Positions 1,955-45,957 of a stretch of 55,736 nt of DNA are shown piece by piece (position 1 is the stretch's first letter; every line of letters starts with the position of its first letter). The stretch comes from a virus (taxonomy: Duplodnaviria > Caudoviricetes). Where the stretch lies: IMG/VR virus record IMGVR_UViG_3300027985_001320, positions 1 to 55,736 of that record. The stretch is one strand, 5' to 3'. The notes beneath the pieces were generated by a model that did no database searches, was not told where the DNA came from, and was given only the letters and a program-made list of their open reading frames with translations. The position numbers and the translations under genes were made by a program.

Positions 1955-3286
1955 ATGCTTACGTTAACCCCAGAACTACAGTCGTTATACACTGATGAGG
2001 ATGTTCTTGCATCCCTTCAGGCTGTTGACACCCACGTATCCGTACAGGCTAATGAACCGATCACCGCGGACATTAAAAAGATTTTCGATGAAGAGTGCAG
2101 TGACGTGGTTTTCGACCGCGCGCTTTTGAAAAACATGGTGGAATACGTCCAACGGTTTTTGCATAAAAACAGCGATCATGTTGATTTTTTCGGGGGTAAC
2201 TTAACCGGTGTGCAAGTGGTACGGTTTACCGATGCGGACAGCAATCGACTCTTCGATGAAATCTTGGAAGTCGATGAAGATACCATGCAACGTAAACTGA
2301 ATGCCCATCCGAAAATTGATCCGGAATGGAAGCGCGTGAGCAGTATCTATAACGTGACCATGCTGTGGTTACTCTACAGCTTTCAGAACGCTTCCAAACT
2401 TAATGCCAAAGAACGTCGTCAGGGACAGATGTCAACACTGATCATGTTGCAGGCTAAGTTTTTAACCAGCTATTTGTTTCAAGCCTACCGGTATCCGGCC
2501 GACCCTGATATTGCACAAGCGGCCGCCGAACAACTGAACCGTAAGTTTATTTTGAAGCAGGCAGGGAACTGGTATAACGTGCTGGTGATTCGGGCAACCT
2601 ATATCCTCGATAATAAATACCCCAACCTGTGGGCTCATTTTAACGATGACAGTGAAATCATCGATGCGGTTCAAGACATACAGCAGGGGATTAAATCCGT
2701 TGCTAAGAGCGTTACCGCTGTCTTCTACGACATGCATAAGGCGGGTAAACGCGTCATTTCCACATCGAACATTATCGACATCGAAGGGGAATCTCAGATC
2801 CGAGCTACCATTCGTCGGGTAACGGAATATAAGCGCTACCTGCAAGATATATCGCATGATGCAAAGGACCTGATCAAAGATGAGTTGGTTAAGATCATCT
2901 TGGAATATATGCCTACCGCCAGTGAGCGCTTTTTCCGTGAGACCTTGGTGTTTATCGCTGAGTCTCGGGGGAGTCGCCAATATGAACGGCTTATTAACAC
3001 GTTCATTGATAACCTCATCATCCATGCCTTCGGGGTAATGGATCGTGACCGCGCGCAGTTGGCTAAGGGACATTTTGGGGAGATTTTAACGCGTCTGCAG
3101 GGGGTCTATATGTCTGCCCGCTCGACCGACCCCAGCTTGTTGGAGTTGCGTCAGATGGGGGAGCAGTTAGTCGTTAAGGGCAGCCATGCCACTTCGCAAG
3201 GTACCATCGCCGCCGTACGCACCAGCTTAATGCTCTACTTAGTGCTACGTGCCTTAGCCATGAAACACTATCACCAAATGAGCTAA
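1955..3286 (+). CDS. Conserved phiKZ-like virion structural protein (probably gp32 family) with N-terminal propeptide-like segment
   Basis: 443-aa ORF with KNSDHVDFFGGNLTGVQVVRF, typical of this chimallivirus core family. Convergent on the terminase gene. Confidence 0.65.
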   Translation: MLTLTPELQSLYTDEDVLASLQAVDTHVSVQANEPITADIKKIFDEECSDVVFDRALLKNMVEYVQRFLHKNSDHVDFFGGNLTGVQVVRFTDADSNRLFDEILEVDEDTMQRKLNAHPKIDPEWKRVSSIYNVTMLWLLYSFQNASKLNAKERRQGQMSTLIMLQAKFLTSYLFQAYRYPADPDIAQAAAEQLNRKFILKQAGNWYNVLVIRATYILDNKYPNLWAHFNDDSEIIDAVQDIQQGIKSVAKSVTAVFYDMHKAGKRVISTSNIIDIEGESQIRATIRRVTEYKRYLQDISHDAKDLIKDELVKIILEYMPTASERFFRETLVFIAESRGSRQYERLINTFIDNLIIHAFGVMDRDRAQLAKGHFGEILTRLQGVYMSARSTDPSLLELRQMGEQLVVKGSHATSQGTIAAVRTSLMLYLVLRALAMKHYHQMS

Positions 3287-9918: not shown

Positions 9919-10845
9919 TTAAACCGTAATCAGTGCACCCATTTGCTGCTGGTAACGCTGCCGTTCGGCCAGGGGGGCGGCCTCCAACAGTTCGGCGATC
10001 TTGGTTTTACGGTAACTCCGATCTCCCAGGGCCTGCAGCGCCAGCGCATGAAACAACGGCGGGTACTCCAGTGCGATGGCCACACTCTCACGGTGCGCCG
10101 CCCCCATGAAGGTATTTTGGAGATAACTGTAAAGGACGCCGATATCCAAGCGCGCCAGGCGTATCGGGTCCGCCCGTTTGAGTAACTCGACCAGCGAGTG
10201 AATATTCAGGATCGGACCGAACTCTTCTTCACGGAAGCGTATGAAAATTTCATCGGCATTGACGCGTGTAATCACCCCCAATTTATTGGTGTAACGCCGC
10301 AGCACCAGATCGCTGCTCAGATCCACCGGGGTCTCTTCAAACAACATCAACCAGTAAAGCGCCGTGTAGACACTGACCCATTTCATGGCTTCCGGGTTAA
10401 GCAACTCCCGTTGACCTAACACGCCGGTGATCCAGCGGGAAAATACACGACCGACTAAGCCACTGATGGCTAACAGATCCAGCGGCCCGTTATTAATCCA
10501 GGCCTTGGAGATGGCCGCCCCAAACAACGGAATGCCGCTGTCGTAACTGTTCGGAATCCGAAAACTATGAGTGCGTGTATCTTCCTGAACCCACCCCTTA
10601 CCATAGACCGCTACCATCCAACTTTCGGTAATGGAAAGATGGGCGGATTTGAACAGAATCGGATGTTTGAACTGAGCGACTTCGGTGTTACTCGGTGGGA
10701 CAACCAACACCCCTTTTACATCTGTTCCTTTAATACTGTCGGATAATATGAGTAAGTCACTGACTAAAGACCGCTGTAGCTGACGGACGATGCTGGCAAC
10801 GGACATTCCGCTGCACAGAGTAGTTTCATATGGCGTCTTAAACAT
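9919..10845 (-). CDS. phiKZ gp28-like conserved protein
   Basis: 308 aa. MFKTPYETT start and VAIALEYPPLF near the C-terminus. Divergent from the sheath gene as in phiKZ-like phages. Confidence 0.65.
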   Translation of the reverse strand: MFKTPYETTLCSGMSVASIVRQLQRSLVSDLLILSDSIKGTDVKGVLVVPPSNTEVAQFKHPILFKSAHLSITESWMVAVYGKGWVQEDTRTHSFRIPNSYDSGIPLFGAAISKAWINNGPLDLLAISGLVGRVFSRWITGVLGQRELLNPEAMKWVSVYTALYWLMLFEETPVDLSSDLVLRRYTNKLGVITRVNADEIFIRFREEEFGPILNIHSLVELLKRADPIRLARLDIGVLYSYLQNTFMGAAHRESVAIALEYPPLFHALALQALGDRSYRKTKIAELLEAAPLAERQRYQQQMGALITV

Positions 10846-10959
10846 CTCTTTGTTCCTTCTCTGTGTTTTTAGCTAAAAACATTGCATAACTGGGTAGCAA
10901 TACCCTTGTTTTACCGCACCCGAGCACTATACAATACAGCCCTAAATTAGGAGCACCCG

Positions 10960-13041
10960 ATGACAACACTCATCAAAAACGGAGCACCGAAGTTCATTCC
11001 GCTCGGCGCCCAAGATATTTCGGCAGCTACGTCTGAAGAAAACACGCCAGTCTATCCGGTGAACTTCCCGCATCTGTACATCTATGCGCAGCGCGGCCGT
11101 CTCGAACCGCTGGCGTTGTTTTTGAGCCAGGCCTACAAGGAATACGGCGACGAAACGTTTAACGAACGTAGCGTCTACTTTAACCACCAGACCGTTTTTG
11201 CCACCAAAGCGTTTGGCCCGAAAGCCAACAAAATGCTCCTGCAGCGTTTGAAACCCGATGACGCCAACGACCCGGCGACCCTGGTGCTGTGGGTTGACGT
11301 ACTGGAAGCCGACCTCCCAGTCTATCAGCGTGAGGCTGATGGCAGTTACACCTACGTCGACGGGGCCCTGGTGGATACGGGTACTACCGTGGCCGGGGTA
11401 AAACTGTTGTGGTCGGTGGTTCCGTTGGACCGTGATGGCGGCGAGACCCTGAAAGGACTGCAGACGAAACCCGGCACGATGGCCGGTACCCTTGACGGTT
11501 CACCGGTGACCTCTACGCTGTATCCGATCCTGCCGTTGGAGGTTTCCAGTTTCGGCGCCTACGGTAACAACATCGGGATTCGCCCGTATGCCCCGACCCT
11601 GTCCAGCACCACGCCGGTCGATGAAGACCTGATCGATGACCAGTCGGCTTACCTTTACCGTATCCAGATGGTCGAAAAAGCCACCACCAGCACCACACCT
11701 GTGGTGACGCGGACGGCCGATGGCGACAACTACGTCGAGTTCATGCTGAAACCCGGTGCGGTCAACACCAAACTGAATAGCGACCTGTATATCGACGACG
11801 TCGTCATTTCGGCTTACAAGCCGGAAACGCTGTATGCCGCTGACTACTACGACGATGCACCGTTCGGCCAGCTGTATGTGTATCAGGATAATATCGATAC
11901 CGTCCTCGGTAAGATGTACGCCGCGGAAACGGCGGAAGGCACGCTGGACCTGCCGACCACGGCGGATGCAAAATACATCATGAACCTGTTTTCCGCGACG
12001 ACGTATGACGATGTGCCCTACTACGCCGTTCAGGTAGCGGGCGTGGATGACGGCGGTGTGATCTTTACCGAAACCTCTACGCATTATGCGGCCGGCGGTT
12101 CTGACGGCACTATGAACGATACCGCGTTTGCAGCACTGGTGAAACATCAGCTGGATAACTACGGTGAGCTGGAATACGACATCGCTAACGCGCTGCGTTA
12201 TCCGGCCTCCAGTTACTGGGACACCGGTTTCCCGCTGGAAACCAAGTACTCGTTCTTCAACATCCTGAATAAGCGCTCCGACGCGATCCCGTTTGTATGT
12301 ACCCAGGATGTCAACGAAGAACTCAACACCGCCAGTGAAGATGGGTCTGTAGCTGTCAGTCTGGTTACCCGTGCCCGGGCTTACCCGGAATCAACCTGGT
12401 ACGGTACACCCACCGCCCGCGCCGCCCTGTTCGGCTGGGCCGGTAAGCTGATGAACTCGAACTACAAGAAAAACGTGCCACTGTTGATCGAGTTCGCGGC
12501 GATGTACGCAGGGATGCTGGGGTCCGAAAGCCCGCTCTTTAACGAGCGCAAAGCCTTCGATACCCCGAGCGGTAAGAAACTGAGTCTGATCGACCCGGCG
12601 ACCACCAACGTCGTGACCCTGACCGAATCACTGCGCAACAAAAACTGGGCAAACGGTCTGGTGTACGCCGAATACTGCGACCGTAACCAGTTGGCCTTTA
12701 CGCAGTTCCAGACGGTACATGAAGACGATACGTCGGCGCTGAACACCATCCTCACCGCCTCGGCGTTGTGCCTGATCGACCGTGTGTGTCGTCAGACACA
12801 TATCGATCTCTCCGGTACGACCAAGTTCGAAACGGAACTGGAGTTCCTGGAAGAAGCGGATCGCCGGACAACTGAAGCCCTGCAGAAGATCCTGTCTGAG
12901 CGCTTTACGTTCTCGGTGCAGTCCGAGGGTAACGACCCGCGGGGGTATGTATGGTACACCAAAGTCTATCTGGGCGCCAATATCCAGAAGACGGTTAACG
13001 TACAGACCACCATTGTTCACCGTAAAGATACTGGAGTATAA
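10960..13041 (+). CDS. Contractile tail sheath protein (phiKZ gp29-like)
   Basis: 693 aa. IKNGAP...LGAQD start, YG.ETF...S.YFNHQT, GGSDGTM and WDTGFPLETK motifs. AGGAG RBS and strongly biased codon usage. Confidence 0.88.
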   Translation: MTTLIKNGAPKFIPLGAQDISAATSEENTPVYPVNFPHLYIYAQRGRLEPLALFLSQAYKEYGDETFNERSVYFNHQTVFATKAFGPKANKMLLQRLKPDDANDPATLVLWVDVLEADLPVYQREADGSYTYVDGALVDTGTTVAGVKLLWSVVPLDRDGGETLKGLQTKPGTMAGTLDGSPVTSTLYPILPLEVSSFGAYGNNIGIRPYAPTLSSTTPVDEDLIDDQSAYLYRIQMVEKATTSTTPVVTRTADGDNYVEFMLKPGAVNTKLNSDLYIDDVVISAYKPETLYAADYYDDAPFGQLYVYQDNIDTVLGKMYAAETAEGTLDLPTTADAKYIMNLFSATTYDDVPYYAVQVAGVDDGGVIFTETSTHYAAGGSDGTMNDTAFAALVKHQLDNYGELEYDIANALRYPASSYWDTGFPLETKYSFFNILNKRSDAIPFVCTQDVNEELNTASEDGSVAVSLVTRARAYPESTWYGTPTARAALFGWAGKLMNSNYKKNVPLLIEFAAMYAGMLGSESPLFNERKAFDTPSGKKLSLIDPATTNVVTLTESLRNKNWANGLVYAEYCDRNQLAFTQFQTVHEDDTSALNTILTASALCLIDRVCRQTHIDLSGTTKFETELEFLEEADRRTTEALQKILSERFTFSVQSEGNDPRGYVWYTKVYLGANIQKTVNVQTTIVHRKDTGV

Positions 13042-27140: not shown

Positions 27141-30100
27141 ATGGCCCGTTACGACTCGCTCTATCGTCGCTATGGTGCGTTTAAGCTCACGCAGTTGGCA
27201 AACCCCCCGATCAATTTTACGACAGAGTTTGAACTGCCGCTAAATGCGCTTTATCACTTTGTACCGCAGGTTATCCATGATCGTGGACCGTCCATGGACG
27301 ATTTCATGGTCAAGCGGTATAAACACCCGGTCCGGGTTGATCACGTCAGTCAGTTGACCGTTGTTGAAGGGACCCCCCGGCATCTGTCCACCGATATCCG
27401 TAACTTGGCCCGGGATTACCACCGCGCCCATCCACACTTTCGGCCGGCACGAAACGTGGAGGCGACCTTGAATGACGGCCAGACCTTGCTGGTCGAAAAC
27501 TACGGTCTGCTACCGTCCATCTACCGGTATACCGCCAGCATGTACAGCGACTACTATCGGCGGATGAACCTTAACGAAACCGTAATGGCCCAGGTCGTTG
27601 CGTTTAATAAACGCAGTGATCGTCATCAGTTCATTCGCATTAAGTTGCCCGAAGCCCTGCCGACCTACGCCTTGTTACGCAGTGTGGTCGACGCCCGTCA
27701 GAATAATAATGCGCGCCGCTTCCGTGAGCTGATGTTGGAGCACTTCAATACGTTTGAACTCTATTTCATCGCCTTTCTATGGGCGGAAATGGTCGCGCCG
27801 ACCCATCCACTGGAGGCTTATGATAATTTCAACGTGGTGTTCTATGACTACGGTAAGTTCACCTGGTTGAATGTCGGCCAGTTGATTCGGTGGGCCCAGA
27901 ACGATAAGGGGGTAAGCCAGCAAGCCTTGGGTGATGACGAGCACATCGACTGGGTGGCATCGAGTGACGCCGAGGCGTCACTCCAAGGTATCGACCGTAA
28001 GATCGTCGACGTGCAGATGCGTTTCTTGCGCCATCTGATCGCGCTGATGGAGGTGCGGACGAAAAATGATGTTCAGGATGACCCGACCGAACACCCTGAG
28101 CCGGAAGAGGTGGGATATAGTGAAGAAGAGACGGTCGTTCTGGATCCGGAAGACATTGATCGTGATATTGCTCACCTGGAAAAGGTCGCAGAAGCGAATG
28201 TCACCAATGACACCATTGACCGTCCGGAACCCACGATTCTCGACGGCGTAAAAGTCGTCGCCGATGAGATGGCGGATGCTGGACTTGTTTCCGGGGCGGA
28301 ATACCGTCGGATGTTGAAAAACGCTGATCGGTTTAAAGAAGTGCCTAACCCCTATGGGGGCCCGGGGACCCTAGCCGATCTGGCGGTGGTCACCCATGAG
28401 GAGATGCAGATCACGGCGCCGAAAGTGATCAAGTCGATCGAGGGGGTGACGGACACCTCCATGTTGAAACAGACGTTTAATGCCGCTGACAAAACCTACA
28501 CTAAAAATATCCTGCCGAAGCATATTACTCAGGCGGTCATGCAGGTGCAGAAAGAGGGTTATTCTGTCGTAGGCTATACCGTCGAACCGGTCATATCCGC
28601 TGTTAATGACTACAGCATCCACCGGGTCACGATTATGCCGCCAAAAGGCAGCCCATTTCAAATGACATTCCGGCTACCGACGATCAATGCCGGTGGGACG
28701 ATGTTGATCGATGGGACGGAGTATCGGTTTCGACCGCAACGTATCGACATGCCGATCCGTAAAGTCAGCGCCAGCCGCGTGGCATTAACAAGCTACTACG
28801 GTAAGGTCTTCGTCGACCGTGCAGAAAAGAAAGCGTATAACTTGACCAACTGGCTGCAGCGCATTATACAGGACGCGATCAGCGATAATGAAAATACTAC
28901 CCTGACGAACGGCGTATTTGGTAATGCCTTTTATAAAAACATCCACGTACCGTTGCACTACAGTATCATTTCACAACAGGTCAGATCGTTTGACCTGAAC
29001 GGGATCGCGTTCTATTTTGATTATGAACGCCGGGTGGACCATTTCGGGGCCAGTGTTGTAAAACAGGCCGAAACAAAAAACTTTATTCTGGTTGGCCTGC
29101 GTAACCAGAAACCCGTGGTCATGGGAAATGATAACGTGGTGTATGAGGTTACCCCTCGCGGTCCGGAGCCGTTGGGTACGATCCCGGCGCTGATGGGCTA
29201 CAGTGCAGACCAAGTGCCGATGATGATGGCGACCGTCATGGTCTATGGTAAACCGGTACCCTTAGGGCTGGTGTTGGGGTATTACATTGGGTTACCGCAG
29301 CTGTTAACCCTCACCGGGGCGGAATACCGCTTAATGAATGCGCGGACGCGCGACCAGATCGCCCCCGATGAATTTGTTATTCGGTTTTCCGACGAATGGT
29401 TGGTTATCAACCGGGATAGTCCCCTGGTGGAATTGATCTTTTCCGGTTTTTTGGAAGCGAGCAAAATTCTACCGCGGTACAGCTACGCCCAGTTTCGTCA
29501 GCCCGAAATCTACATCGGTGTTCTGGAGCAGATGAAGATCAGCGTGACCTATGCCCGGGAGATACGGGACCTGCGCACGCGTTTCATCGACAACATTACG
29601 GTGGGACTGTTAGAACAGATGGGGGAACCCACCGCGTGGGTGCCGTTACTGTTACGTTCAGCTAAACTGTTAACGACGGAATGGCATCCTGACGAGATGT
29701 CCATGGCGTACCAGCGTTTCCGTGGATCGGAACGACTAGCGGGGACCGTCTACAATGAAATCAGCCGGGCGATCAAACAGGAGACCGCGAAACCAGCGAG
29801 CGCCCGTGGTAAGTTGACGATTAACCCAGAAGCCGTTTGGATGTCCATTGTCACGGATGCGGCGATGGATATTGCTAAAACCTCTAACCCTATCGCACAG
29901 ATCCGCCAGAACGAGACGGTGACGCACACGGGTAAAGGCGGACGCGGTGGTAAGAGCATGGTCTATCGGACGCGTAAATTCTCCGATGAGGACCTGGGGG
30001 TAACCTCAGAAGGGACCGTCGACTCAGGTAGTGTTGGGATCGTGAGTCAAGTATCACCCGCGGCGAATATCACGTCATTGTACGGTACCACGCGACCTTA

Positions 30101-31549: not shown

Positions 31550-33016
31550 ATGTTGAGTCAAACCGCTGTAAGCGCCATGTCGGTGCTGGCCTATGAGCTG
31601 GCGAAAAAAGGTAAAGTGGTATCGGTTGTACACGAGACAGTCATGGCCGCTGGGATGGGGGCGTTACAGCCAGGGCTGGTTGCCACTACTGCCCCGGTGG
31701 CCGACAATACCCTGGTTAACGGTGAACCGGAATACACCGTGGTGGAAGCGTCTCGCTATAAAGATGCATCAGGCGCCTATCTCCATGATGAAAAAATGAA
31801 AGAGCTGCGTCAGCTGGTCGGTGACCAAGTACTCGCCAATATGGCGCTGGCCCGTAATACGGTGCAGCCGTTGGTGCGGCGGGTATACGACGCCATCGAT
31901 GCGCGCACCGAAGAACGGTCACGCCTTGCCATGATGCCGATCAGCATTTTGACGCATCGGCCGGCGGCGATCTGGCGGGCGGATGCCCTGCTCCAGGAGC
32001 TGAGTAATCTGGAACTCGTGGCCATCGAGAAGATCAGCACGACCCCGCGGTGGCCGTTGCCGACCCCGGATGTGATTACGGCCCGGATGTTAACCGGGGA
32101 TCCGGCGTTCGATGCCCTGGTCGCGGCTTTTATCGAACAGGAAGGTATCGACAACATCGTGCAGGTTTTCCGCGAACTGTTCAGTACCGCCGGTGCCACC
32201 AGTGCGACCCAGCGCCTGAATGATACCAGCGAACGCTCCGCCAATTTCAATCTGACCGCCTACCTATTGGCCCGTGGTCTTCAGCGTAACCCGCTCGAAG
32301 GACTGCGTATGTCAGAGGTGGACTATGACACGCTGCTGCGTAAAATCTATCAGCAAGCCGGCCGCTCACTGTCCCGGGTGATTAAACGCCGGCTCGATGA
32401 TGAACGGACATCAAACCTGCGGCTTGACTATGAGATCAACGTCACCAGCCTGCCGGCGCAAACGCCCTCAACTATCCACGTCTACGGGCCGTCCTACGTG
32501 AAATGGCTGGAGGCAGGGGGTACCCCTGAGGTGTTGATGGGGTCTGCCGTCAGCAACCGGAACATCGATGGGGCCGATCTGATCAAACATAAGGACTACT
32601 ACATCGAGAAGTGGACAGTCTTTAATGACCGTAACCAGCGCTTGGTGGAAGAGCAGCTCTACAACTACCGGTGTGCCGCAATTTGCGACGAGGTCCGTAA
32701 GATCATCGGGGAAGGTGAATACAATAACGACGTTGACCCGACCGTGCTCTATGCTCGCCTTAACGAGGTGTTTGCCAATACCCCGCGGACGGTTCGGACA
32801 ATGCCCGTCGCCATGGCACGTCGTTTGGTGTGTCGTGTACTGTTCCCGAAATCGGATGCGGAGTTGATTCTCTCTGAGCAGGAGGCCGCGATGTCACGTC
32901 ATCCTGGGATGACTGCCCGTGAGGCCGCGTTAGTCGCCGGGGAAGTGATCATCACTGACTTCCTCGGCAAACAATTGCAGTTGCAATCGATCACGATCGC
33001 AAACGCTAATCGCTAG
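31550..33016 (+). CDS. Conserved virion-associated protein (phiKZ gp177-like by synteny)
   Basis: 488 aa. WLEAGGTPEVLMG motif. Lies between vRNAP beta and gp176-like genes. Confidence 0.6.
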   Translation: MLSQTAVSAMSVLAYELAKKGKVVSVVHETVMAAGMGALQPGLVATTAPVADNTLVNGEPEYTVVEASRYKDASGAYLHDEKMKELRQLVGDQVLANMALARNTVQPLVRRVYDAIDARTEERSRLAMMPISILTHRPAAIWRADALLQELSNLELVAIEKISTTPRWPLPTPDVITARMLTGDPAFDALVAAFIEQEGIDNIVQVFRELFSTAGATSATQRLNDTSERSANFNLTAYLLARGLQRNPLEGLRMSEVDYDTLLRKIYQQAGRSLSRVIKRRLDDERTSNLRLDYEINVTSLPAQTPSTIHVYGPSYVKWLEAGGTPEVLMGSAVSNRNIDGADLIKHKDYYIEKWTVFNDRNQRLVEEQLYNYRCAAICDEVRKIIGEGEYNNDVDPTVLYARLNEVFANTPRTVRTMPVAMARRLVCRVLFPKSDAELILSEQEAAMSRHPGMTAREAALVAGEVIITDFLGKQLQLQSITIANANR

Positions 33017-33747: not shown

Positions 33748-33759
33748 AGGAGCATGAAC

Positions 33760-34572
33760 ATGGCCATCCCGATGAGAATGATGGGAAACTCGATCCGCCC
33801 GGGGGTGGATGGGTTTCAGTTTCGGTGTACCGCATTAGAGGGCACTGGAAAACAAGGTATCCTACCGCAAAATAGCGATGGGTCTTACACCGTCGTCGTT
33901 GGCGGATTAGGTATCGTTCACAGTAACGGGGAAGTCCATAACCCGGAGCGCCTGCGCGAATGCCTGCAGGCTAACAGCGATTTAATGCGCCGCATCACCG
34001 AAGGGACACTGCGGGGCGAGAATGGCCATCCCGTTCGGGACCCCAGTATGTCCCGTATGGATTGGTTCAAACGGATTATGACCATTGCGGAGTCGCGGAT
34101 CTGTGTTCATTTCGACGACCTCACCGTCGGGGCCGAGCCCGCTAAAGATCGCATGGGGCAGTGGGTAACACCCATCATCGCCCGTATCCGCCCCGCCGGT
34201 GAGCTGGGGTATGTAACGGAGCAAGAGATCAAAGATCCGAAACAGAACATCTGTTTTTCTATTCGTGCGCTGGTGACCCCGATGATGTCGGGCGGACGCC
34301 GTGAGAGCTACATCAATACGCTGGTCACGTATGATAAAGTGAATGAGGGGGGTGCGCCGGTGGCGCGGAAATGGTCTTCTCCGTCGCTACAGAACCAGGT
34401 GGTCGAGGCGGACGAATTAGATTTCTTTAACCACCAGATCATCCATGCGGTTTATGAAGAGATGCAGACGCATCCGGAATCGTTGCACCAGTCCTATGAA
34501 ATGATCATGGACCTTCGGAGCCAGATGAAGCGTTTGCAGATGGACCGCGCGGCTGCACCGGTGACCTGGTAG
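33760..34572 (+). CDS. Prohead (head maturation) serine protease, phiKZ gp175/T4 gp21-like
   Basis: LRGENGHP (catalytic His), FSIRA (catalytic Ser) and TYDKVNEG. AGGAG RBS 7 nt before ATG 33760 (ORF opens at 33754). Confidence 0.88.
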   Translation: MAIPMRMMGNSIRPGVDGFQFRCTALEGTGKQGILPQNSDGSYTVVVGGLGIVHSNGEVHNPERLRECLQANSDLMRRITEGTLRGENGHPVRDPSMSRMDWFKRIMTIAESRICVHFDDLTVGAEPAKDRMGQWVTPIIARIRPAGELGYVTEQEIKDPKQNICFSIRALVTPMMSGGRRESYINTLVTYDKVNEGGAPVARKWSSPSLQNQVVEADELDFFNHQIIHAVYEEMQTHPESLHQSYEMIMDLRSQMKRLQMDRAAAPVTW

Positions 34573-34582
34573 GGGGTGTACT

Positions 34583-35926
34583 GTGAGTGGCTACTATGAC
34601 GCACTGCCCTTACCCATCCGTCGGCAACTAACCTTAATCCCCCCTGAAGATCGCCACACCCAACCCTACGCGTACCATGTCAGTAAAGCACCTAACATCA
34701 AACGGTTTTTCCCCTGGGTACCGGACACTACCATGCCGGGTGAAAACCGCTCGGTATTGCGTGTGCCCTGCGCGTTGGATGTGCTCTATTGCTTTGCGGG
34801 CAACGGGACGATTACTGGCAACTTCTTTGATCGGTTTTACAATGGCGAATCACCCATCCGGTGGACGCTCTACCGTATCACCTCGGAGGAGCTGTACCAG
34901 CCGGCGGAGAAACTACTGCCGGATGTCGATAAAACAAAAGAAGTCTGGGTACTACCGAAGGATAAAACCGGCTATGTGCCGGAGATCGTCGGCGAAATCT
35001 ATGTCGTACGGTACCATGAAGACCTTAACTACTACAAAGATCATCGCACCAGTATCGAGATGGCCATCAAGATCTTTCCGGGCGGTAGCGCCTGGGTCGA
35101 TGGGCGCGAGGCTACACCCGGAACCTACCTCTTTACCAGCCGCGGTCAGCACACGTACGGTTTGCCGATAGGCGCTAGTCGCCTCTATCCTATCTCTGAA
35201 GCGCGTTATGCTGAAGTGATAGCAGGAGAAGGCTCTACGCAAGAAATAAGCCCTGTGGCCATTCTGGAGCGTCTGAGCTATATCCCTGAACGTGTGCGTA
35301 AAAAGATCCGCATCGATAGCAAGGAGGACTTAGGGGAGGCTGACCTGCTGTACGTGAGTCTTAAGGGAAAGGTCGGTCGCCTAGTACCCGAATATCGGCG
35401 AGTCAACGACACGGTGGATGGCATCTCACAGTTCCTTCCCCACGTTGAGGTCTACCGCTATCTGGAGTTGGCCTTAGAAGCCTTTAATCTTCCCTATGAC
35501 CCCAACCCGAGTCGCCTGAGTGCCGACGATAACCCTATACTGCATCTGTACAGTGTAGATTACGCGCACGTGATCACCGTCGATAATCCGGGCTACAAAG
35601 ACCGCTGGTTTTTGCTGGAGGAACCGCCTGTCTATCGGTATTACTTCCCGGTAGAACACGCGCAGGTCATGGTTACGCACCATGTGCAGCGCACCATAAA
35701 CGGCGCCACCACAACGGATTTGGTGATTTTGGTTAATGTGTTACGGGAAGGTAAGATCGCGACACTCTCAGAGGCGACCTTAACACAAGGGGTCTATGAG
35801 ATTAAATATCTCAACATTCAGGAGGGGAGTTTGGGTAAAGGTGGCACAGTGATGCAGACCACGCAAACACTGTGGGATGAGGCAATGGCTAAGGTCAGTG
35901 TACAAGGCCTACCGGTTGAATGGTAA
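34583..35926 (+). CDS. Putative head protein with two tandem homologous domains; first has ADP-ribosyltransferase-like motif order
   Basis: 447 aa. YHVS...RFFPWVP...ENRSVLRVPCA...PDVDKTKEVW in half 1, related LYVS...RLVPEY...LPHVEV in half 2. Confidence 0.55.
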   Translation: MSGYYDALPLPIRRQLTLIPPEDRHTQPYAYHVSKAPNIKRFFPWVPDTTMPGENRSVLRVPCALDVLYCFAGNGTITGNFFDRFYNGESPIRWTLYRITSEELYQPAEKLLPDVDKTKEVWVLPKDKTGYVPEIVGEIYVVRYHEDLNYYKDHRTSIEMAIKIFPGGSAWVDGREATPGTYLFTSRGQHTYGLPIGASRLYPISEARYAEVIAGEGSTQEISPVAILERLSYIPERVRKKIRIDSKEDLGEADLLYVSLKGKVGRLVPEYRRVNDTVDGISQFLPHVEVYRYLELALEAFNLPYDPNPSRLSADDNPILHLYSVDYAHVITVDNPGYKDRWFLLEEPPVYRYYFPVEHAQVMVTHHVQRTINGATTTDLVILVNVLREGKIATLSEATLTQGVYEIKYLNIQEGSLGKGGTVMQTTQTLWDEAMAKVSVQGLPVEW

Positions 35927-35974: not shown

Positions 35975-37114
35975 TTAAAGTGTCGTGTTGTAAAGTGCAT
36001 TAAAACAGGATAAAAGCGGTTGCTGCGTATACATCCCGCTGATGGCACAGGGCATTCGGTAGGCAGATAGGGGTGACAGAAGCGTTAACGCGTCCTCACT
36101 GGCGGCCATAAAAGGCGCTAGATTCAAGACCGTGGTTGTCCCCCGGGTAGAACGGTCCCACATAGGGTTCAGTTTTACCAGCAGCAGGGGTAACGCTATC
36201 TGATCGGCTTCACGCGCCGCCCGATCCATATCGCTATAGAATCGATAAAAGGCTAATACCAGTGTCGGTAACGTCGGATACAAAACACGCGTGGTTTCAA
36301 TGGAAATGGCATCAACCAAAAGCTCTAAGATCGCAATGAACCCCCGGGTATAGGCCAGTTTGATCGCTTCCGTCACCGCGATCAATTTAATGTCCGCATC
36401 CGTAATAGCGCCCAGCGCATTGGTTACCAGAGTGGTAGAACCCGTATAGACCGCGCGCTTTAGGGTTTGTCGTGCTAACGATAGTCGGGTCGCCTGATCC
36501 GTTTGCGTATCACTCTGGCTTTCCAGTGTGGTGTACAGGTTAAATAAGGCTACGGCCCCGGTGACATACGTGGCATCGATTCCCCGCAGCGTAATCGTTT
36601 CGCCATCGATTACCACGCGGTTCCCTGTCACTGTGGACACCGTACTGGCTAAATCACCCAGCACCTCTTTGTAGAGATCCTCCGCTGACCCCAATACACT
36701 GTCTGAAAGCCCTCCGGTCATTTCAGACAATTGTGCCTCCAACCCGTCCAGATCCCCAGCGACCAGCTGCCCTGCCGCTTCGAGTGAACTGATGCCGGTC
36801 AGTTTTCCCAACTCGGCTAAGTCCTGTAACCCTTGTAGTCGTGCCGTCTCGGTTAAGATATCAATCCCTGGGATATCCCCTGCGATTTTAATCAGATCTT
36901 TTCCGGTTAAGGCTTCGCCTATGCCGACGATACCTTCTAGTGAACCAAAGCGCTTATCCCCTAAAGCCTCGAAGAGCGCATTACCGGTATCGGATAACAA
37001 CGCCGGTAACGCATTTTTAACTAAGGTGTCGCCGGTATCATAGACATCCAGCGCTAACAACGCATCTTTCGGTCCGGCCGAAAATACTGAGGATGCTATT
37101 TTATTCGTCGCCAT
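35975..37114 (-). CDS. Conserved phiKZ-like virion structural protein
   Basis: AGGAG RBS before ATG 37114. N-terminal IASSVFSAGPKD.L...DVY motif recalled from chimallivirus virion proteins. Confidence 0.6.
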   Translation of the reverse strand: MATNKIASSVFSAGPKDALLALDVYDTGDTLVKNALPALLSDTGNALFEALGDKRFGSLEGIVGIGEALTGKDLIKIAGDIPGIDILTETARLQGLQDLAELGKLTGISSLEAAGQLVAGDLDGLEAQLSEMTGGLSDSVLGSAEDLYKEVLGDLASTVSTVTGNRVVIDGETITLRGIDATYVTGAVALFNLYTTLESQSDTQTDQATRLSLARQTLKRAVYTGSTTLVTNALGAITDADIKLIAVTEAIKLAYTRGFIAILELLVDAISIETTRVLYPTLPTLVLAFYRFYSDMDRAAREADQIALPLLLVKLNPMWDRSTRGTTTVLNLAPFMAASEDALTLLSPLSAYRMPCAISGMYTQQPLLSCFNALYNTTL

Positions 37115-37151
37115 GACAAACTCCTGGGAAGGTTGACTATAGCATTTAAGC

Positions 37152-37202
37152 AAAAAAAAAAATAAGTAGGCTATAGACAGGGGCGTTTCCCCTGTCTATA
37201 GC
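37152..37202 (-). terminator. Intrinsic terminator of the leftward accessory operon
   Basis: GCTATAGACAGGGG-CGTTT-CCCCTGTCTATAGC (37170-37202) with a minus-strand T-run at 37152-37162. Confidence 0.8.
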
Positions 37203-45135: not shown

Positions 45136-45957
45136 ATGACTGAAACGTCTACGCTGTTGCCGCTGGTCACCACTTTGGACCGGCATGTTACCTGGGCCGA
45201 GCATGGCATCCAGCGACCGCTGGAAATCTCCACTCAGGGGTTGTCCGATTATTTTTCTGGTGTCACTCAGGCCTTCAACGCGACGGACACGTTCACCGGA
45301 TATATTAAAGGCCTGTTTTCATCCACCCACCGCATGGTGCGTTATCTGAATAGCGCCACCTATTCGCAGCTGAAAGATAAAGAGTTCTATGTGCCGCTGG
45401 GGTTTACGGGTAACCTGTACGAGTACGTTCAGGTACTGACCGATTCGGGCCGCTATATCGAGTCAGGGCTGGCGTTTATTACGGACGCTATCAAGTGGAT
45501 GGGGTCGTTGAATAACGACCCAGACCAGTTTCGTAACCGCACCCAGCCCCGTTTCAACTATCCCGACACGGTCACGATGCAGAAAGCATTGAAGCCGTTC
45601 TTCGACAACACCGAGCACACCACGCAACCGTTCGGGGCCATCGTTATGAATGTCGGCCAGTATCGCGATGCGCTGTTACAGATGAACGAGCTGTCCGATC
45701 GCAGTACCCTTAAAGTAACAGAACAGGTCCATCAACAGATGACCACGTTCGTGACCTATGCGAAACTGTTGGTCGAACAGATCGAAGATGCCTATGACCC
45801 CGTGCCGGTCTCAAAAGAAACCCATCAGATGCTATCGGCCTTGTTCAAGGAAGCGGATGTATTCTTTTCGATGACGGCGATCCTGCTTTATAACCGTAAG
45901 CGATTGGCGGTGGCGCTTCAGGATAATGAAGCGTTGTTAAAGAAATTTGTGAAATGA
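45136..45957 (+). CDS. Virion head protein (phiKZ gp153-like) with N-terminal propeptide-like segment
   Basis: 273 aa. VPLGFTGNLYEY motif. Divergent from uvsX, between uvsX and RNase H as in phiKZ-like phages. Confidence 0.62.
   Translation: MTETSTLLPLVTTLDRHVTWAEHGIQRPLEISTQGLSDYFSGVTQAFNATDTFTGYIKGLFSSTHRMVRYLNSATYSQLKDKEFYVPLGFTGNLYEYVQVLTDSGRYIESGLAFITDAIKWMGSLNNDPDQFRNRTQPRFNYPDTVTMQKALKPFFDNTEHTTQPFGAIVMNVGQYRDALLQMNELSDRSTLKVTEQVHQQMTTFVTYAKLLVEQIEDAYDPVPVSKETHQMLSALFKEADVFFSMTAILLYNRKRLAVALQDNEALLKKFVK

Follow-up and report, generated by a model that had tools for sequence, protein, structure and literature searches.

The window analysed here is the entire 55,736-base IMG/VR record IMGVR_UViG_3300027985_001320 (classed as a linear fragment, about 20% complete) which, by PHROG and Pfam scans of its sequence, is a fragment of a phiKZ/SPN3US-like jumbo phage. 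It encodes a prohead (head maturation) protease of the Peptidase S80 family, and this protease has Gln (Q213) and His (H245) at the two tail positions where nearly all of its relatives have Glu, the residue after which such enzymes cut. The presence of Gln and His at both self-cleavage positions suggests, but does not prove, that the cleavage residue has changed in a small lineage, which consists of the window protease and two relatives. In this lineage the preference of the enzyme for Glu at P1 (the residue just before the cut) may have moved to Gln, or at the least widened to take it in, and His would be accepted as well, a reading for which we hold belief and doubt to be evenly matched.

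The characterised proteases of the T4 gp21/phiKZ gp175 kind, those of T4, phiKZ, 201phi2-1 and SPN3US, are all described as cutting after Glu (PMC9026906, PMC5694885, PMC10052503). A full-text literature search, which had the primary phiKZ and 201phi2-1 papers outside its scope, turned up no prohead or capsid-maturation protease described as cutting after Gln. What would be new, if the sites are cut, is the P1 residue; the protein itself is a member of S80.

Gln and His at the tail cleavage positions

The protease and the two tail positions are as follows.

33754..34572, + strand: prohead (head maturation) protease, 272 residues, of the Peptidase S80 / phiKZ gp175 / SPN3US gp245 type
34384..34392, + strand: tail site 1, S211-L212-Q213, in the conserved autocleavage motif K-[YFW]-x-S-P-x-[LM]-E, with Gln for Glu
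34480..34488, + strand: tail site 2, S243-L244-H245, in a second conserved motif, [GAS]-x-E↓S (↓ marks a known or candidate cut), with His for Glu

An exhaustive HMMER search recovered 704 family members at E <= 0.001; the best 150 of these, together with further proteins and the window protease, make up an alignment of 152 rows. In it the window tail, K-W-S-S-P-S-L-Q213, sits in the strongly conserved sequence K-[YFW]-x-S-P-[SAGT]-[LM]-E-S, and the column of Q213 holds Glu in 148 of the 152 rows, Gln in three and Arg in one. The Gln rows are the window protease, P0002 (79% identical) and P0005 (49% identical), and the single Arg row is the frameshift-like P0042. When annotated proteases are added to the alignment, E203 of SPN3US and E210 of phiKZ (A-L-E210) fall in the Q213 column; experiment has mapped the autocleavage of SPN3US gp245 to the first of these (AQE-203; PMC10052503, Table 2). 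An earlier note on this DNA had proposed that Gln stands at the expected tail site of the protease; the alignment places it there more firmly than that note claimed. The second tail site, S-L-H245, is absent from the earlier note and also departs from Glu. In its column 146 of the 148 others have Glu, the window (S-L-H) and P0002 (S-M-H) have His, and P0005 (S-M-Q) has Gln. SPN3US E234 aligns in this column, and ATE-234 is named in PMC5694885 as a possible further site in gp245.

In P0042 the C-terminal ~80 residues do not resemble those of the family; they abound in Arg, Ser and Gly, which looks like the result of a frameshifted gene call.

Glu is present in both tail columns of all 26 further proteases (26/26) taken from fetched loci; these represent 26 of the 51 loci L019-L069, the other 25 of which include duplicate contig copies and short contigs. 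The window protease lacks the Glu-ending C-terminal autocleavage motif of S80 proteases, which makes it a less typical member of the family and leaves its membership untouched.

Elsewhere, conserved Glu residues are largely retained. Five columns of the family are at least 80% Glu, and the window protease keeps Glu at three of them (89, 113 and 198, in the catalytic domain), differing only at the two P1 columns. At 13 conserved-Glu columns in three other head proteins the window has Glu ten times, Leu, Asp and Ala once each, and Gln not at all. These counts favour more than drift at the two tail sites. They also bear on the possibility that the Gln residues are an artefact, that is, a sequencing or assembly error, or CAG and CAA being read as Glu. 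Glu encoded by GAA or GAG is kept at the structural conserved-Glu columns, Gln is found at site 1 on three independent contigs, and all open reading frames (ORFs) are open under table 11. Among the 44 genes called on the window by greedy ORF calling, CAG is used 445 times and CAA 226 times. The nine S-x-Q sites listed in the earlier note were all found where it had placed them, and both Gln codons are used: CAG in the protease, at both sites of a 443-residue head protein and in a gp153-like protein, and CAA at both sites in a virion RNA polymerase (vRNAP) subunit and at both in a 447-residue protein. The argument that note had drawn from this codon usage against recoding is borne out. With three contigs, both codons and the structural Glu residues kept, error and recoding are excluded for practical purposes, and we give them a negligible chance.

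The three unusual proteases belong together. In a FastTree tree of the catalytic domain only (the columns of residues 20-205; 151 rows, P0042 excluded), which leaves the tail out of account, the window protease, P0002 and P0005 form one clade with a Shimodaira-Hasegawa-like support of 99. P0005 has Gln at both sites, which makes two parallel Glu-to-Gln changes in the common ancestor the simplest history; a change from Gln to His would have come later at site 2 (in the window, CAG to CAC). Down to 49% identity, all three proteases have the same P6-P2 residues at site 1. No closer sampling of the clade was obtained: viral-contig scans with the window protease and with P0002, and a metagenome scan with a three-row alignment of the trio, confirmed no relative, and scans with P0005 gave only relatives of at most 45% identity, at 30 metagenome loci and 21 viral loci. 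The contigs of P0002 and P0005 are short (4149 and 5623 bases).

Family, fold and catalytic residues of the protease

34027..34029, + strand: His92, catalytic; H in 152/152 rows; equivalent to SPN3US H77 (PMC5694885)
34258..34260, + strand: Ser169, catalytic; S in 152/152 rows; equivalent to SPN3US S153 (PMC5694885)
34333..34335, + strand: Asp194, catalytic; D in 152/152 rows; equivalent to SPN3US D178 (PMC5694885)

Judged by its sequence, the protease is an intact enzyme of the known S80 family. Residues 23-238 match positions 1-213 of the 229-position Pfam profile PF20034 (Peptidase_S80; 196.3 bits, cut-off 23.4, E 5.4e-58), a Pfam scan finds S80 alone and no other family, and the PHROG match is to phrog_3014 (E 3.9e-60). 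The nearest cultured relatives, Ralstonia phages RP12, RP31 and FLC1-1B and Xanthomonas phage LucasX, are about 40% identical. The catalytic residues assigned to SPN3US gp245, H77, S153 and D178 (PMC5694885), have their counterparts in H92, S169 and D194, and Arg171, two residues past Ser169, is likewise R in 152/152 rows. Since H92, S169, R171 and D194 are invariant, the protease is not a dead copy.

An AF2 model of the protease, built on a 96-row alignment, has a mean pLDDT of 85.8. Its sole convincing fold match in the PDB is T4 gp21, 5JBL, with a probability of 1.00, an E of 1.2e-3 and a TM score of 0.66 by target over 173 columns at ~13% identity; the top three matches are all chains of 5JBL, and the next-best match reaches a probability of only 0.12. 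By sequence profile the likeness to T4 gp21 is insignificant (hhalign of the 96-row alignment: probability 0.7%, 59 columns), and an hmmsearch of the family profile against PDB sequences gave no relevant match. Thus, as far as the model indicates, the relationship to T4 gp21 (Peptidase S77) is at the level of the fold only.

Changes specific to the clade within the enzyme

33919..33921, + strand: His56, replacing a conserved Asn; N in 141/148 others; H, H and C in the clade
34306..34308, + strand: Ser185, replacing a conserved Lys/Arg; Ser throughout the clade, against K in 80 and R in 63 of the 148 others

The catalytic domains of the trio also differ from the family at several conserved positions. 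Asn56 and Lys/Arg185 are present in 26/26 of the locus proteases. Column 126 is D in 101 and E in 14 of the 148 others and Gly in the trio; column 176 is D in 101 of the 148 and Pro in the trio; and residue 174 is Thr in the family and Val in the trio. Taken as a signature, N56/D126/D176/[KR]185 reads NDD[KR] in 62/148 rows, and the HGPS or CGPS of the trio is unique. The changes at N56, D126, D176 and K/R185 may have remodelled the groove that takes the substrate; they do not amount to an identified S1 pocket.

A role for Lys/Arg185 as the partner of the P1 carboxylate was considered and dropped, since the modelled strands 167-179 and 182-196 form a hairpin. Residue 185 is not assignable to S1 because its predicted pairing in this hairpin, with 176, lies away from Ser169. 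MAFFT puts a Tyr of phiKZ, not the adjacent Lys, in column 185.

The gene neighbourhood

PHROG and Pfam scans of the window identify a terminase, a tail sheath, a 2269-residue tail fibre/lysin, two vRNAP subunits, virion proteins, a UvsX-like recombinase and an RNase H. Among deposited phages there is no near DNA match to the window. From 25.5 to 36 kb the order of genes matches that of SPN3US at 212-222 kb: vRNAP subunits, orthologs of gp243 and gp244, the protease and a gp246-like gene. With the tail fibre, the two vRNAP subunits and the gp243 and gp244 orthologs around it in the SPN3US order, the protease has the head-morphogenesis context of an S80 enzyme.

Candidate substrates

1955..3286, + strand: 443-residue head protein, ortholog of SPN3US gp262 and phiKZ gp32 (phrog_2921, E 6e-116)
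2012..2020, + strand: candidate cleavage site S20-L21-Q22↓A-V in the 443-residue protein; island kept in P0156 (71% identical)
2039..2047, + strand: candidate cleavage site S29-V30-Q31↓A in the 443-residue protein, 10 residues before the conserved block; stretch absent from P0156

The first candidate outside the protease is in the 443-residue protein, which has matches in SPN3US, phiKZ and 201phi2-1 and whose SPN3US ortholog, gp262, is named as possibly cleaved (PMC10052503). The window protein begins with a 36-residue N-terminal extension, which must be translated because the ATG at 1955 is the sole in-frame start; extensions of at least 20 residues are present in only 4/45 database homologs. 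Between the window protein and P0156 the extension is identical in 10/42 columns and the remainder in 296/407, and S-L-Q↓A-V forms a shared island within the divergent part. P0186 has S-L-E in the same MAFFT column as S-L-Q22. Seven Glu-type orthologs have long extensions (SPN3US, RP12, G014, G011, P0186, P0192 and P0195), and in five of the seven a [SAG]-x-E lies within ~25 residues of the conserved block. The distance of S-V-Q31 from that block, 10 residues, equals that of S-L-Q in P0156 and S-L-E in P0186, and is near that of AAE in SPN3US and GHE in G014. Both sites of this protein had been listed in the earlier note; the S-L-Q22 site gains from the conserved island, placed where extended relatives have S/A/G-x-E, and the S-V-Q31 site does not, its stretch being absent from P0156.

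Upstream of this gene, a run of 13 T at 1905-1917 falls in the 36-base gap between a minus-strand ORF (1580-1918) and the divergent gene for the 443-residue protein.

45136..45957, + strand: 273-residue head protein, ortholog of phiKZ gp153, 201phi2-1 gp238 and SPN3US gp214 (phrog_4682)
45229..45237, + strand: candidate cleavage site I-S32-T33-Q34↓G in the 273-residue protein; V-S-T-Q↓G in P0154 (49% identical)

The gp153 family is present in 18/20 records. According to PMC5694885, phiKZ gp153 is cut at SQE-52 and 201phi2-1 gp238 at STE-64, and SPN3US gp214 is uncut. The window I-S-T-Q resembles the mapped I-S-Q-E of phiKZ and I-S-T-E of 201phi2-1 in motif and in rough position, a resemblance that does not extend to homology of the columns. 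Among 18 orthologs the cleavage column has [SA]-x-E in 12, V-L-E in one and x-M-N in four (RSL2-like), and SPN3US is without a motif. [SAG]-x-E is missing from the first 225 residues of the window protein and from the N-terminal region of P0154.

In the RSL2/RSF1-like loci L072, L073, L074 and L077, Q/R-M-N occupies the gp153 cleavage column and Glu is present at both tail sites of the protease; the gp153-family protein of these phages is probably unprocessed, like that of SPN3US.

31739..31747, + strand: V64-V65-E66 in the 488-residue ortholog of phiKZ gp177, 201phi2-1 gp271 and SPN3US gp243; T-V-V-E66↓A near mapped sites

For this family, PMC5694885 gives cuts at SVE-60 in phiKZ gp177 and AVE-61 in 201phi2-1 gp271, and lists SPN3US gp243 as uncut. 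In the window protein P3 of V-V-E66 is Val; an alignment of 32 orthologs varies in this region, where the N-V-E of SPN3US is left uncut. Residues 33-40 of the 488-residue protein (31646-31669) are an eight-residue insertion that ends in G-A-L-Q and is followed by Pro; it is absent from 32/32 aligned orthologs.

27915..27986, + strand: S-Q-Q261 and S-L-Q282 in the linker of the vRNAP large subunit (ortholog of phiKZ gp178 and SPN3US gp241); weak candidates
34583..35926, + strand: 447-residue protein from the gene after the protease, with S-T-Q220 (35234-35242) and S-V-Q441 (35897-35905); candidates only

The remaining sites of the earlier note fare less well. The vRNAP linker is variable and acidic, and Table 2 of PMC10052503 lists no processing of the SPN3US vRNAP subunits. 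The 447-residue protein is about twice the size of SPN3US gp246 (209 residues), and only its N-terminal ~100 residues (residues ~30-148) match gp246/phrog_5043; against the ORFs of the fetched loci it gave only two hits, and its second half has no detectable relative. A duplicated module was considered for this protein and rejected, as its two halves show no significant similarity. The S-L-E motifs of the 392-residue protein encoded at 35975-37153 are irrelevant here, because this protein, an ortholog of phiKZ gp174, is a baseplate pin and so outside the reach of a head protease.

The protease and the 447-residue protein have similar C-terminal ends, A-P-V-T-W (34552-34569) and L-P-V-E-W (35906-35923), and no other called protein of the window ends in this way. 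In the Glu-type relative L049 (~10650-11050) the protease and the ORF downstream of it both end in P-A-Y-T-K-W, and a C-terminal Trp (Trp272 in the window) is found in at least 90% of 96 family members. The ending shared by the protease and the next gene may be a prohead-targeting tag.

Weighing a possible change in cleavage residue

If the P1 preference has moved to Gln, the protease would enter the prohead and free itself by two cuts in its C-terminal tail, one after S-L-Q213 and one at S-L-H245. It would also trim short N-terminal extensions off head proteins after S-x-Q, those of the gp262/gp32 ortholog and perhaps the gp153 ortholog, and in other respects would act like gp175 and gp245. 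The sequences show that the protease belongs to S80 with its catalytic triad intact, that both conserved tail Glu residues are replaced column for column, that the trio is monophyletic, and that S-x-Q is conserved in relatives of two candidate substrates; both the cutting at S-x-Q/H sites and the change in the pocket are steps that we infer. A Glu-specific enzyme of the T4 gp21 fold is not expected to cut Gln sites, because changing all Glu of the bait loop of a CD-NTase to Gln abolished its response to T4 gp21 (PMC12991175); this CD-NTase belongs to the host defence CBASS (cyclic oligonucleotide-based antiphage signalling system).

Several observations weigh against such a change. The clade comprises only three proteases, with genomic context from the window alone, and genes for the major capsid, portal and inner-body proteins are not found within the 55.7-kb record. 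The trio tails contain the conserved motifs A/P-D-E221↓L and S-x-E249↓M, which could be real sites. P0156, which shares the S-L-Q↓A-V island, has an A-L-E close to its N-terminus. In the gp153 ortholog, MAFFT and hhalign agree in putting the window STQ past the cleavage column, within an insertion of 18 residues, and hhalign pairs the first residues of the protein, M-T-E, with the cleavage motif instead. S-x-Q is also present in the vRNAP linkers of the E-type phages RP12 (twice) and G016 (twice), and the linker sites are given no weight because they are at chance level and shared with Glu-type linkers. The V-V-E66 kept in the gp177 ortholog speaks mildly, and not decisively, in the same direction. 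Within the enzyme, by the secondary structure of the AF2 model, residue 185 probably pairs with 176, a position seven residues further along the strand than Ser169, and five Glu-type rows without K/R at column 185 still keep P1 Glu.

Counts of motifs likewise lend no help. S.Q occurs 40 times in the 44 called proteins, no more often than in shuffled ones (mean 40.6), and is not enriched overall. In four head proteins the observed/expected values for [SAG].E and for [SAG].Q do not distinguish the window from 24 relatives. The note's own caveats, that S-x-Q occurs by chance and that A-L-E29 lies near the N-terminus of the protease, are correct. A narrower pattern, [VAIL]S.Q[AGSN], occurs 8 times against 3.3 expected, a count reached in 25/1000 shuffles, and 6 of its 8 occurrences are in head-protein homologs; because the pattern was defined post hoc, the count carries little weight. 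By the same kind of count, S-x-E is over-represented in the 44 window proteins (80 against a shuffle mean of 59, with 80 reached in 1/1000 shuffles).

These observations can be accommodated if the enzyme has kept its Glu specificity. The two ancestral tail sites would then simply have been lost, the tail would be cut at E221 or E249 or not at all, and the other S-x-Q motifs would be coincidental, in proteins that go unprocessed like SPN3US gp214 and gp243. The window tail has A-D-E221 and S-Y-E249, and all three tails share D220-E221-L222 and S247-x-E249-M250 without variation. The retained V-V-E66, the STQ outside the gp153 cleavage column, the lack of any global S-x-Q enrichment and its chance presence in E-type linkers all fit, as does the variation between phages in the processing of gp153 and gp177 orthologs described in PMC5694885. 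However, both lost sites went to the same residue, Gln (followed by His in one sub-lineage), and not to varied ones, and the P6-P2 residues of site 1 stayed intact across 49% identity. In two of the trio tails the P3 residue of E221 is Pro, and neither column 221 nor column 249 has conserved Glu in the other 148 rows. Retention of Glu specificity also leaves unexplained the S-L-Q↓A-V island of the 443-residue protein and the unique changes at conserved positions of the protease. We consider it the main alternative, possible though distinctly less probable than a changed P1 residue.

The tail could also have been put to another use. Its Gln and His sites may be uncleavable mimics of a substrate, so that an autoinhibitory or targeting tail is retained and occupies or regulates the active site while the other substrates are still cut after Glu. 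Glu-to-Gln is an isosteric change, the P6-P2 motif is kept, and it was a Glu-to-Gln change that abolished the bait-loop response to T4 gp21 (PMC12991175); moreover the conserved extreme C-terminus (Trp272, P-V-x-W), common to the downstream protein, hints at a targeting role. Yet a retained tail gives no account of the conserved S-x-Q in the N-terminal extensions of other head proteins, and C-terminal processing is common to the proteases of T4, phiKZ, 201phi2-1 and SPN3US (PMC9026906, PMC5694885). We regard a retained tail as improbable.

The shift of P1 preference from Glu toward Gln remains the reading that we favour, as a claim built on three proteases and on relatives of two substrates. 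The earlier note had gone further, to propose that protease and substrates co-evolved to P1-Gln. That proposal holds for the protease tail and gains from the island in the 443-residue protein. Beyond these, co-evolution is plausible and not shown, because the gp153 STQ is off-column in an insertion, the vRNAP sites are at chance level and the gp177 ortholog keeps V-V-E.

Relation to known systems and significance

The closest characterised counterpart is SPN3US gp245, which shares with the window protease the Pfam family, the gene neighbourhood, the catalytic His, Ser and Asp and a tail with two positions, E203 and E234, that align to the window sites. The two proteins are ~30% identical, and they differ in that gp245 has Glu at both positions, whereas the window has S-L-Q and S-L-H. 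SPN3US is reported to cut after A-x-E at 14 mapped sites, its own AQE-203 included (PMC10052503, Table 2). The phiKZ gp175 and 201phi2-1 gp268 proteases are likewise of the S80 type and share the tail motif K-W/Y-x-S-P-x-L-[P1], in which phiKZ has A-L-E210 where the window has Q213. They cut after S/A(/G)-x-E (PMC9026906, PMC5694885), and C-terminal processing of both is reported (PMC9026906). T4 gp21 (5JBL) is the best structural match and is similar in its role in head maturation and in being of a self-processing kind; it differs in belonging to a separate Pfam/MEROPS family and in its motif, as it cuts after L/I-x-E (PMC9026906).

Outside this group, cleavage after Gln is familiar, and here the likeness is one of analogy only, with no homology claimed. 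The picornavirus 3C protease and the coronavirus main protease, which are unrelated chymotrypsin-like cysteine proteases of RNA viruses, cut after Gln with a small P1' residue and have some tolerance of His at P1.

Host CBASS sensors are described as detecting prohead proteases through bait loops (PMC12991175), and a change of P1 residue would matter to any host defence that uses Glu-containing loops to sense the activity of these proteases. That CBASS sensing could have been a selective reason for such a switch is something that we purely infer. A stronger form of this idea, in which Glu bait loops drove the retuning of protease, tail and propeptides to P1 Gln as immune evasion and not neutral drift, seems to us unlikely.

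If the enzyme has instead kept its Glu specificity, the window merely represents a lineage with lost or moved autocleavage sites, which would be of modest interest. A true change would bear on annotation, since the propeptide boundaries of jumbo phages are predicted from S/A/G-x-E motifs. It would also amount to a natural switch in specificity with a short list of candidate determinants: four conserved positions of the protease change together with the P1 residue, so that the basis of P1 recognition in this fold would become directly testable.

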